Assembly (NCBI GenBank): GCA_038244085.1
Contig: JBBRTX010000015.1
Coordinates: 4,997-36,996, forward strand
Reading direction: 5' to 3'
DNA length: 32,000 bases
Source: Bacteroidales bacterium
Lineage (GTDB): Bacteria > Bacteroidota > Bacteroidia > Bacteroidales > FEN-979
Below the pieces are notes generated by a model. It was not told the origin of the DNA, did not search any database, and was given only the letters and a program-made list of their open reading frames with translations. Of this stretch, positions 13,503-16,326 are shown piece by piece (the stretch's first letter is position 1; the number at the start of each line of letters is the position of its first letter). Position numbers and translations under genes: made by a program.

Positions 13503-13799
13503 TTAACAACAGTTTCCGCCATCACTGCAATCGCAGGTTGGTTCGGTGCCGCGAAGCAATCCATTGATGATGCCGGCAGCGCAGCCAACGCCGGATTTTA
13601 CGGTTATAGCCCCGGGAGCGCAGTTCAGGGCACAGGCTCCACATTCCATGCACAGATCTTTGTTCCGGATCACCGCTTTCCTGTTTTCTATTTCGAAAAC
13701 ATGGTGTGGACAAACGATCAGACACATCCGGCATCCGTTGCATTTCTCTTCGTCAAGCCGGAGAGAGACCACATTCGATAAATAGGCAAATCCGCTCAT
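13503..13799 (-). CDS. hgcB: HgcB, [4Fe-4S] ferredoxin partner for mercury methylation
   Basis: CNGCRMCLIVC and CMECGACALNC (each CX2CX2CX3C), isolated conserved-type Cys73 (GVGCA), C-terminal vicinal CC; directly downstream of hgcA. Confidence 0.93.
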   Translation of the reverse strand: MSGFAYLSNVVSLRLDEEKCNGCRMCLIVCPHHVFEIENRKAVIRNKDLCMECGACALNCAPGAITVKSGVGCAAGIINGLLRGTEPTCDCSDGGNCC

Positions 13800-13813
13800 C
13801 GTATTGTTGAGTT

Positions 13814-14890
13814 TTATAAGGTGATAAATCGTGAAATGATCCAGCCAGCCAGGCCCAGTCCCGCCAGGATTATCTGGATGGGTAACCAGGCTTTCATCTC
13901 TTTCTGAACGCCCGAAAGAGAGGTAAACGTTGACGACCCTGTGAAATTCATGGCCATAAACGAGGAGAGTCCTCCGACGATCAGGAACCAGGCCATAATT
14001 TCAATGGGATTCGTCCCCATCATTCCGAAGAGATCCAGGATGACAGCGGTGAGAAGACCCAATAAAAGTCCCTTCACAGAGAATCGGCGGAAGCGAATCC
14101 ATGGCAGCAGGGCAGGCGTAAGGGCGCAGCCGGCCAGATAGCCTGAAAAGAGATTTACCACAGCCTTCCATCCTGTTTGGAATGCAGTGTCAATTGAATA
14201 TCCACTGGGAGATAACCCGGAAAGCAGGAAAAATATGGCCGGAACCAGCAGCATATAATATCTGCCGTAAAACAGATCGACAGGAATCAGCTTAAGCCTT
14301 TCCACCAAGGGGAAAGTTACCGTTCGCATTTCCTCTGTCGCCTTCATACCAGCCTCCCTGAAAGCTTTTATATCGGAAGCCCTGACTGGTCCGAAAATGA
14401 CAGAGAATCCAGTCATCCTTTTAACTTCATGAGCAGCAACACCGGTGGCACAGAGTTGCGGCAGAATGAGCTTCCGGTGATCCACTACCTGATCGAGATG
14501 ATGAATACGGATGCGCCGAACAACCTCTTTTGTGCTGAATATGCCTTTGCCAGCTGCGCACCATACATTGATCCCTTTGGTATTAATTACCAGGATCCAG
14601 GCATCAATTCCATCCAGCCCCTTTCGGAGATGGTCAAAACTCAGTTTGTAGTTTGCCGTAACATAGACCGATGAATTGCTGTCAGGATTGCCCGTTGCAT
14701 AGATTCCCGGTGTTATTTTGTATTTCATTCTTCCGATTGACCAGCGAACTTTCAATGTTTGCAGGTAATCAGACTTTGTCCATTTTGTAGCCACGATCGG
14801 AACCGAAAATGCCTTGGCATGCAGGTGACCGGTGATAAAAGTCGGGGTCATATTAAGCGTAATATTTTTTCTTAATCCAAAAAGCCACAT
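13814..14890 (-). CDS. hgcA: HgcA, membrane corrinoid protein for mercury methylation
   Basis: [13 protein letters not shown] cap-helix motif, [35 protein letters not shown], and multiple C-terminal TM helices; alternative ATG at 14851. Confidence 0.95.
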
Positions 14891-15911
14891 TCACCAATGA
14901 AAGCAAGACAGGGACTTCAACCAGCGGGCCAATCACTGCGGCGAATGCTTCTCCCGAATTTATACCAAATAGGGCTATTGCAACCGCTATGGCCAGTTCG
15001 AAATTATTGCTTGCAGCCGTAAATGACAGAGTAGCTGATTGTTCATACGTAGCGCCCGCTTTTTTGCTCACAAAGAATGAGACAAAGAACATAATCAAGA
15101 AGTATATGCTAAGAGGGATGGCTATCAGGATTACATCGGCAGGTAATTTTACAATGTATTCGCCCTTTAAAGAGAACATCACGATGATGGTGAACAAGAG
15201 TGCAATCAGGGTAAGAGGGCTGATCCGGGGAATGAATTTCGTATTGTACCAGTTTTTACTTTTTATCCTGATCAGGATAAACCGGGTAAGAAAGCCAGCA
15301 ATAAAAGGGATTCCAAGGTATATAAATACACTTTTGGCAATTTGCCCGATCGTAATGTTCTCAACAACCAGGTTAGTCGGAACACCAAACCATCCGGGTA
15401 ATATGGCGATGAACAGGTAAGCGTAAACTGAGAAAAGCAATACCTGAAAGATGGAATTGAATGCAACCAGTCCCGCACAATACTCCGTGTCACCCTTTGC
15501 CAGTTCATTCCAGACGATCACCATGGCAATGCAACGGGCAAGGCCAATCAGGATGATACCATACATATAAGGGAGGTTTGAATTATTTTCGCCCGGGAAT
15601 AATTTGAAAAAAGTGATGGCCAGGGCAAACATCAGAATCGGGCCGATGATCCAGTTTTGCACCATGGAAAGCCCGAGAATCCTATAATTGCGGAATACCC
15701 TGCCGAGTTCTTCATATTTCACTTTTGCCAGTGGCGGATACATCATCAGGATCAGGCCGATGGCGATGGGGATATTCGTGGTTCCGGAATTGAACTGGTT
15801 CCAGAAACCGACTACTGCGGGAAAAAGATAGCCGGAGAACACACCCATAAACATGGCAAGGAAAATCCAAAGCGTGAGGTAACGGTCGAGAAATTTAAGA
15901 CGGGTTTTCAT
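14853..15911 (-). CDS. acr3: ACR3-family arsenite efflux permease
   Basis: [26 protein letters not shown], ...[66 protein letters not shown]: characteristic ACR3 blocks. Confidence 0.93.
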
Positions 15912-15960
15912 GACTCAGGTCTTGGGTTCATTAAATCTTATGGATTAAATTATTAAAGGG

Positions 15961-16326
15961 TTAGCAGTTCAGGTTCGTTTCCATAGAAATTTCCGAAAGA
16001 AACTTAGCAAAGAGTGCATGGATCTGTTTTGCCCGTTGTTCGTCAATACAGTAATTTATGGTCAGCCCGTCAATCGTTCCCTTGATCAGCCCGGTTTTCC
16101 TGAGTTCCTGCAGATGCTGTGAAACCGTCGTCCGGCTTAATGGTATCTGATCTGAAATGTCGCCCGAAATACAGGTCTTCTGTTCGGCAAGGAATTTAAG
16201 AATTGCCAGTCTTGCAGGATGAGACAGCGCTTTTGCGATTTTAGCCATTTCCTGAAGATGGTTCTGAAAAACATTGCTCTTAGAGTATGTCATAATTGTA
16301 TATTTAATGTCGCAAACATACGACAT
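15961..16326 (-). CDS. arsR: ArsR/SmtB-family transcriptional regulator (probable true start ATG at 16293)
   Basis: AKALSHPARLAILKFLAEQKTCISGDISDQIPLSRTTVSQHLQELRKTGLIKGTIDG winged HTH; first gene of the acr3-hgcAB run. Confidence 0.9.
   Translation of the reverse strand: MSYVCDIKYTIMTYSKSNVFQNHLQEMAKIAKALSHPARLAILKFLAEQKTCISGDISDQIPLSRTTVSQHLQELRKTGLIKGTIDGLTINYCIDEQRAKQIHALFAKFLSEISMETNLNC

Follow-up and report, generated by a model that had tools for sequence, protein, structure and literature searches.

The 32,000-nucleotide (nt) stretch of a Bacteroidales genome analyzed here (hereafter the window) carries on its minus strand four consecutive genes, arsR, acr3, hgcA, and hgcB, a locus best explained as a minimal Bacteroidota arsenic (ars) operon with the mercury methylation genes hgcAB as its two distal genes. 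We propose, with a probability of about 0.65, that a single ArsR-repressed promoter drives the four genes and that a thiophilic ligand, probably As(III), derepresses it. Within one clade of Bacteroidales, hgcAB nearly always forms part of an ArsR-controlled ars operon, the likely operator and promoter of which are now defined to base level. The native role and the regulation of HgcAB bear on the prediction of methylmercury production. Our results raise the possibility that the level of hgcAB expression depends on arsenic exposure in the Bacteroidales methylators commonly present in lakes, wetlands, and sediments.

An earlier note made from this DNA had described four minus-strand genes with minimal gaps. 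The four open reading frames (ORFs) do lie consecutively where that note placed them and, in profile searches, all of them exceeded the curated cut-offs of their families. ArsR scored 66.9 bits with NF033788 (cut-off 55) and 44.8 bits with PF01022, a winged helix-turn-helix family. Acr3 matched TIGR00832 with 441.4 bits (cut-off 282.8) over profile positions 1–327 of 327 and is 72–84% identical to most of the acr3 products found after hgcB in relatives. Its translation contains the Cys of RCIAMV and the Glu of PLVEVP, residues known from the Acr3 of C. glutamicum. HgcA matched NF040863 with 429.9 bits (cut-off 275) over profile positions 1–325 of 325, and the model match fully covers its C-terminal half, where five hydrophobic segments can be read by eye from the translation. 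Its cap-helix motif, NVWCAAGK at residues 95–102, follows the pattern N(V/I)WCA(A/G)GK with the cobalt-ligating Cys that we used as diagnostic, and is invariant across 36 aligned relatives. By these family criteria, HgcA is assigned to the mercury methylation proteins. HgcB, encoded directly after it, scored 123.1 bits with NF040864 (cut-off 99) and has two CX2CX2CX3C motifs (CNGCRMCLIVC and CMECGACALNC) as well as a C-terminal Cys-Cys pair (...GGNCC). The hgcAB genes are the sole enzyme genes of the operon, and no homologs of ArsC (LMWPc type), ArsM, ArsD, ArsA, ArsP, or DsbD-like proteins were found across the 32-kb window.

The four genes are separated by gaps of 49 nt (arsR stop at 15961, acr3 ATG at 15911, read from the sequence), 1 nt (TAA-T-ATG, acr3 stop at 14853, hgcA ATG at 14851), and 14 nt (hgcA stop at 13814, hgcB ATG at 13799). 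The earlier note had left two starts open for hgcA, 14890 and 14851. The first, which would overlap acr3 by 38 nt, was rejected, and the second was retained, because the identical database protein has 345 amino acids (aa), HgcA relatives have 343–348 aa in most of the 120 matches listed, and the alignments begin at the Met encoded at 14851; hgcA therefore does not overlap acr3. With a single base between acr3 and hgcA, a separate promoter for hgcA would not fit there, in agreement with the claim that no promoter-sized gap precedes hgcA, and the coding strand of acr3 contains no TAnnTTTG, the promoter motif discussed below. The junction is not an assembly chimera, since it was recovered in two independent Logan assemblies from different sequencing runs (L001, SRR15443081; L082, SRR19962014). 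The same strand, the short gaps, a single TAnnTTTG box, and no excess of terminators together lend in silico support to the single arsR-acr3-hgcA-hgcB unit of the earlier note, and co-transcription of the four genes is, on this structural basis, very probable. Terminator-like and sigma-70-like sites were no more frequent in the cluster than in shuffled sequences, so that these scans were uninformative, and promoters of the sigma-70 type are in any case not the kind used in this phylum. Neither a cobalamin riboswitch nor any other Rfam RNA was found near hgcA.

The start of arsR has to be revised. The ATG at 16326, which the earlier note had included in its coordinates, was rejected because the first 11 codons coincide with a palindrome that is conserved as DNA and lies out of frame with arsR elsewhere. 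The true start is most likely the ATG at 16293 (MTYSK...), giving a predicted protein of 110 aa, which fits the 105–114 aa called for its four closest homologs (L145–L148). Both the deposited and the ORF-finder versions of arsR (121 aa) are thus probably 11 codons too long (16294–16326), the palindrome being in frame here, and about one-fifth of the ArsR homologs among the matches listed (119–128 aa) look over-called in the same way.

This palindrome, found by aligning the DNA upstream of arsR across related loci, is the putative ArsR operator, and its center is at the same time a TAnnTTTG sequence (Table 1). In promoters read by the primary sigma factor of Bacteroidetes, TAnnTTTG is the −7 box, and a −33 consensus has also been described (PMC7366714). 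A candidate −33 element, TTTG, occurs at an appropriate place in the window, and L145, L146, and L035 likewise have a TTTG 19–22 nt ahead of this −7 box. From 13503 to 16556, the minus strand contains no TAnnTTTG other than the box inside the palindrome, and no second copy of the palindrome was found within the cluster. Among related loci, ATGTCGTATGTTTGCG(A/T)CAT stands upstream of arsR in L022, L023, L032, L035, L040, and L042, and the palindrome also precedes the closest ArsR homologs (L145–L148). In three of these four (L145, L146, and L148), it does not share the reading frame of arsR, and it is therefore conserved as DNA, not as coding sequence. More generally, identical or same-class palindromes precede arsR by 4–33 nt, both in related loci and in ars operons that lack hgcAB. 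Applied to 1.19 Mb of related loci, a relaxed pattern (NNNCG-TWNNWTWD-CGNNN with at least four of the five arm positions complementary) retrieved 45 sites, versus 8.5 ± 2.8 in block shuffles. All but two of them (43/45) are on the hgcA strand, most of them 4–33 nt before arsR or overlapping its over-called 5′ end, and the remaining ones mostly head longer co-directional strings of genes containing arsR (L010, L015, L016, L017, L083, and L084). Several half-site variants exist (TGTCG, TAACG, TATCG, GTTCG, and TTTCG), and on qualitative assessment they seem to vary with the ArsR subgroup. L002, the closest of the species-representative genomes (HgcA 70% identical), has tandem palindromes (1065–1106) directly before hgcA with no arsR between, and DsbD_2, arsD, and arsA follow downstream. 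A further palindrome in L002 (6472–6489) heads the next operon, the first gene of which is Thioredoxin_6-like. A palindrome placed over the −7 box would correspond to the classic autoregulatory layout of ArsR, here on a Bacteroidetes promoter and with ArsR as the presumed binding protein. Elsewhere in the window, TAnnTTTG boxes are found just upstream of ORF starts on the minus (29550–29557 and 4159–4166) and plus strands (18956–18963 and 21548–21555); their position suggests that the motif can serve to mark promoters in this genome, even if it is no more frequent overall than expected by chance.

Table 1. Features of the ars-hgc cluster of the window, followed by membrane protein genes located in related loci
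Feature	Location	Coordinates	Strand	Description
arsR	window	15961..16293	−	ArsR/SmtB-family repressor; 110 aa from the corrected start; annotated ORF reaches 16326
acr3	window	14853..15911	−	ACR3-family arsenite efflux permease; 352 aa; TIGR00832, PF01758
hgcA	window	13814..14851	−	corrinoid protein of mercury methylation; 345 aa; C-terminal membrane domain
hgcB	window	13503..13799	−	2x[4Fe-4S] ferredoxin of mercury methylation; 98 aa; directly after hgcA
Putative ArsR operator	window	16306..16327	−	22-bp palindrome AATGTCG-TATGTTTG-CGACATT; perfect 7-bp inverted arms, 8-nt center
Candidate −7 promoter box	window	16313..16320	−	TAnnTTTG (TATGTTTG); coincides with the palindrome center
Candidate −33 element	window	16341..16344	−	TTTG of a presumed Bacteroidetes sigma-AB-type promoter; 20 nt upstream of the −7 box
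DsbD_TM/ArsG-like gene	L004	5231–5995		
DsbD_TM/ArsG-like gene	L010	5293–5994		
DsbD_TM/ArsG-like gene	L087	4271–4996		
DsbD_TM/ArsG-like gene	L093	4214–4915		

The association between hgcAB and ars genes extends well beyond the window. We compared 80 species-representative loci (of at least 588 hgcA loci), 58 metagenome loci, and four contexts retrieved by exact protein, scoring neighbor genes by tblastn and taking as close relatives the loci with an HgcA at least 58% identical to that of the window. Among these, 18 of 19 loci have arsR upstream of hgcA and on its strand, 14 of 19 have arsC upstream, and 20 of 26 have acr3 on the same strand at most 1 kb downstream. By contrast, among loci with distant HgcA (<49.5% identity, mostly Deltaproteobacteria), acr3 was scored in only 2 of 44 and arsR in 6 of 23. 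Far from being absent in close relatives, which the earlier note had named as a result that would speak against it, the hgcAB-ars linkage is strongly conserved in this clade. Of the arsR-acr3 pair that the note proposed to look for upstream of hgcA, arsR is usually there, whereas acr3 is directly upstream of hgcA in none of 29 close relatives and is found downstream in most. The modal order in close relatives is arsR-arsC-(arsM)-(DsbD-like membrane protein)-hgcA-hgcB-acr3, and longer operons add ArsF-like, ArsP, rhodanese, arsD, and arsA genes. L051, a relative of the culturable hgc+ Paludibacter jiangxiensis NM7, shows the order arsR...arsC-hgcA-hgcB...acr3. Elsewhere, acr3 precedes hgcA only with larger gaps (L027, L033, L006, and L108), and the order of the window, with acr3 immediately before hgcA and without arsC, was found in no other organism among the loci examined. 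Judged by this comparison of gene orders, the window operon is a rearranged, minimal variant of the ars-hgc operon of the clade. The novelty that had been attributed to a tight acr3-hgcA fusion is therefore to be restricted to the unusual gene order: acr3 and hgcA are adjacent but distinct ORFs, 1 nt apart and not fused, and the link with arsenic had already been published.

Indeed, co-location of hgcAB with acr3, arsC, arsM, and arsR was reported by McDaniel et al. 2020 (mSystems, Fig. 6; PMC7438021), Peterson et al. 2025 (ES&T, Fig. 4c; PMC11984097), Zhang et al. 2023 (ISME Commun; PMC10349881), and Gionfriddo et al. 2022/2023, who list Bacteroidetes including Paludibacter jiangxiensis (bioRxiv 10.1101/2022.10.17.512643). 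The environmental metagenome-assembled genomes of the first three reports have the same gene families beside hgcAB as the window, and these reports draw the same hypothetical link between arsenic detoxification and mercury methylation; in the parts of them accessible to us, they describe co-location and define neither operator nor promoter. The remark of the earlier note that ArsR-like regulators occur near hgcAB in other lineages is also well founded in the literature, which includes experiments on Pseudodesulfovibrio mercurii ND132 showing that ArsR2 regulates hgcAB and responds to arsenic (bioRxiv 10.1101/2022.10.17.512643). As in the arsR-hgcA-hgcB locus of ND132 (Goni-Urriza 2020; Gionfriddo 2022/2023), where arsR is co-transcribed with hgcAB, the window encodes an ArsR/SmtB regulator ahead of hgcAB in the same orientation, and Cys52 and Cys93 of the window protein match Cys47 and Cys88 of ND132 by spacing. 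However, the ND132 locus is devoid of other ars genes and its regulator has a four-Cys site (CxC...CxC), whereas in the window the gene of an arsenite pump separates arsR from hgcA, the regulator has a set of three Cys, one of them C-terminal, and the operator contains a putative Bacteroidetes-type promoter. It also differs from the usual arsR-arsC-...-hgcA-hgcB-acr3 arrangement of its relatives in the position of acr3 and the lack of arsC. With the canonical Bacteroidota ars operons of L147 and L148, it shares an ArsR 63–64% identical, an identical ATGTCGTATGTTTGCGNCAT operator, and acr3 as efflux gene, but those operons carry arsC and an arsM dependent on S-adenosylmethionine (SAM) and have no hgcAB. 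Our literature search, the coverage of which was incomplete, retrieved no paper combining hgcAB, ArsR, and an operator or palindrome. The arsenic-hgcAB link is thus real, well conserved, and already published, and this locus adds little to it conceptually, while the operator definition and the clade-level statistics may be new detail.

The regulator itself seems to be of general use in the phylum. The closest homologs of the window ArsR (63–69% identical) head ars operons without hgcAB, namely arsR-arsC-arsM-acr3 in L147 (6001–8641) and L148 (6001–8693) and arsR-arsM in L146 (6001–7170), which argues that it is the standard ars regulator of the phylum and not one dedicated to hgc. Across 38 hgc-linked ArsR sequences, three Cys residues are conserved (numbered on the 121-aa annotated protein): Cys52 in 36, Cys93 in 34, and the C-terminal Cys121 in 29. 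Positions 52, 54, 91, and 93 of the window protein match the spacing of Cys47/49/86/88 in ND132 ArsR2, with two of the four Cys kept. The possibility of a persulfide sensor, raised by the BigR/SqrR proteins among the top PDB matches, was rejected because the score (44.8 bits) is well below the family cut-off (155 bits) and the sensing Cys are not aligned. The most likely ligand of ArsR is As(III), which we infer from the genes under its control because the canonical As(III) sites are absent from the protein.

According to the mechanism that we propose, a sigma-AB-type promoter formed by the −33 and −7 elements would produce a single four-gene transcript, and an ArsR dimer bound to the palindrome would occlude this promoter, repressing the whole operon including arsR itself. 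Binding of a thiophilic ligand, most likely As(III), to Cys52, Cys93, and Cys121 would release the repressor, and the arsenite pump and HgcAB would then be produced together, with translation of hgcA possibly coupled to that of acr3 owing to their single-base separation. In hgc-bearing relatives, hgcAB is located between arsC and acr3, in the slot held by arsM in the hgc-free operons of L147 and L148. A speculative reading is that, in this clade, HgcAB takes part in arsenic detoxification instead of being carried along, standing in the place of the SAM-dependent ArsM of sister operons and catalyzing a corrinoid-dependent methyl transfer to As(III) or to a thiolated or methylated arsenical, with mercury methylation as a side reaction; we regard this idea as a long shot.

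Several points weigh against the proposed explanation as an arsenite-controlled ars operon with a single promoter. The window ArsR has none of the three characterized As(III) sites, that is, the alpha-3 CxCxxC of R773, the C-terminal Cys95/96/102 of AfArsR, and the N-terminal CC plus Cys55 of CgArsR: its alpha-3 motif reads TCISGD, with one Cys, it has a single C-terminal Cys, and the corrected protein has no N-terminal CC. Its PDB relatives are distant (26 bits with AfArsR, 6j05). For this reason, the arsenite induction predicted by the earlier note is retained here as probable behavior of the operon that we infer from its gene content. In addition, the window lacks arsC, present in most relatives, so that the operon is not a complete arsenate-resistance unit. 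A promoter dependent on an extracytoplasmic function (ECF) sigma factor, or a weak non-consensus promoter, could lie inside acr3 beyond the reach of our motif search. ND132 ArsR2 responded also to S-adenosylhomocysteine (SAH) (bioRxiv 10.1101/2022.10.17.512643), and in Lake Mendota metatranscriptomes the presence of arsR went along with lower hgcA expression, with no evidence of induction (PMC11984097).

Three other explanations account for some of these facts. The genes could be co-transcribed under an ArsR that senses something other than arsenite, such as SAH, methylarsenite, Hg(II), Cd(II), or Sb(III), in which case hgcAB expression would report methylation or metal stress. The missing As(III) triads agree with this, as does the response of ND132 ArsR2 to SAH-raising treatments as well as to arsenic, and operons of relatives often contain the organoarsenical genes arsM, ArsP, and ArsF/ArsG-like. 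Nevertheless, the closest ArsR homologs share this operator and head plain arsR-arsC-arsM-acr3 operons, the gene directly targeted in the window encodes an arsenite pump, and the three conserved Cys suit a trigonal As(III) coordination, so we consider a different ligand unlikely. A promoter for hgcAB in the 3′ end of acr3, constitutive and independent of ArsR, would be consistent with the long-held view that hgcAB is constitutive in model methylators (background in PMC11984097) and with the many ECF sigma factors without known motifs that Bacteroidota use. The 1-nt gap, the acr3 coding strand free of TAnnTTTG, and sigma-70-like matches that do not exceed shuffle expectation make such a promoter highly improbable.

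The linkage might also be a by-product of co-transfer, hgcAB hitch-hiking on mobile, reshuffled ars islands without any role in arsenic metabolism and the tight junction being accidental and recent. The locus is mosaic: the ArsR/operator module of the window is closest to loci with an HgcA only 49–53% identical, whereas its HgcAB is closest to loci with an ArsR 40–50% identical, and similarity to the window is uncorrelated between ArsR and HgcA (Spearman 0.07; n = 40, loci L002–L127) against 0.81 between HgcA and HgcB. This discordance points to an exchange of modules among ars operons, gene order varies widely from locus to locus, and an integrase and a DUF5906 gene are found about 10 kb away in low-GC DNA. 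However, in at least five architectures hgcAB is always on the ars strand and inside an operator-controlled unit, with the operator directly before hgcA in L002, a pattern expected from selection for co-expression. Moreover, linkage drops from about 80–95% in the clade to about 5–25% among distant HgcA, which argues that it is lineage-specific and maintained. Mere hitch-hiking thus appears doubtful, and ArsR control of a single promoter, probably relieved by As(III), is the explanation that we prefer.

The operons of relatives include other elements of note. Many close relatives encode a DsbD_TM/ArsG-like membrane protein of 233–254 aa directly before hgcA (examples in Table 1), and a DsbD-family gene is present somewhere in 26 of 33 loci, though absent from the window. 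In L004 (3732–4967; also in L005 and L007), a LMWPc-type ArsC is fused to ArsM in one ORF (NF008823, 338 bits in L004) within the same operon as hgcAB. In L084 (3384–9453) and L145 (6001–11839), long operator-headed strings encode a Thioredoxin_6-like protein and an ABC-transporter module of a FtsX/MacB permease and an ABC ATPase, followed by ars genes, the string of L084 continuing into hgcAB.

The window also has Por_Secre_tail and peptidase S46 genes, which, along with relatives named Bacteroidales, assign the organism to Bacteroidota. Regarding the surroundings of the cluster, the stretch 373–4161 of the window encodes a DUF5906 protein and a tyrosine integrase (Arm-DNA-bind_5 and Phage_integrase domains), has a guanine-cytosine (GC) content of 0.36–0.40, and probably represents a mobile element that became integrated some 10 kb away from the ars-hgc genes. 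We found no tRNA or integration site adjoining the cluster, nor any tRNA near 373–4161. On the plus strand, 8317–13469 encodes a 940-aa PAS histidine kinase, a response regulator (RR), and a 617-aa RR-PAS-HisKA_3 hybrid kinase, convergent on hgcB; a large hybrid kinase is likewise convergent on the ars-hgc operon in L084, which may be a coincidence.

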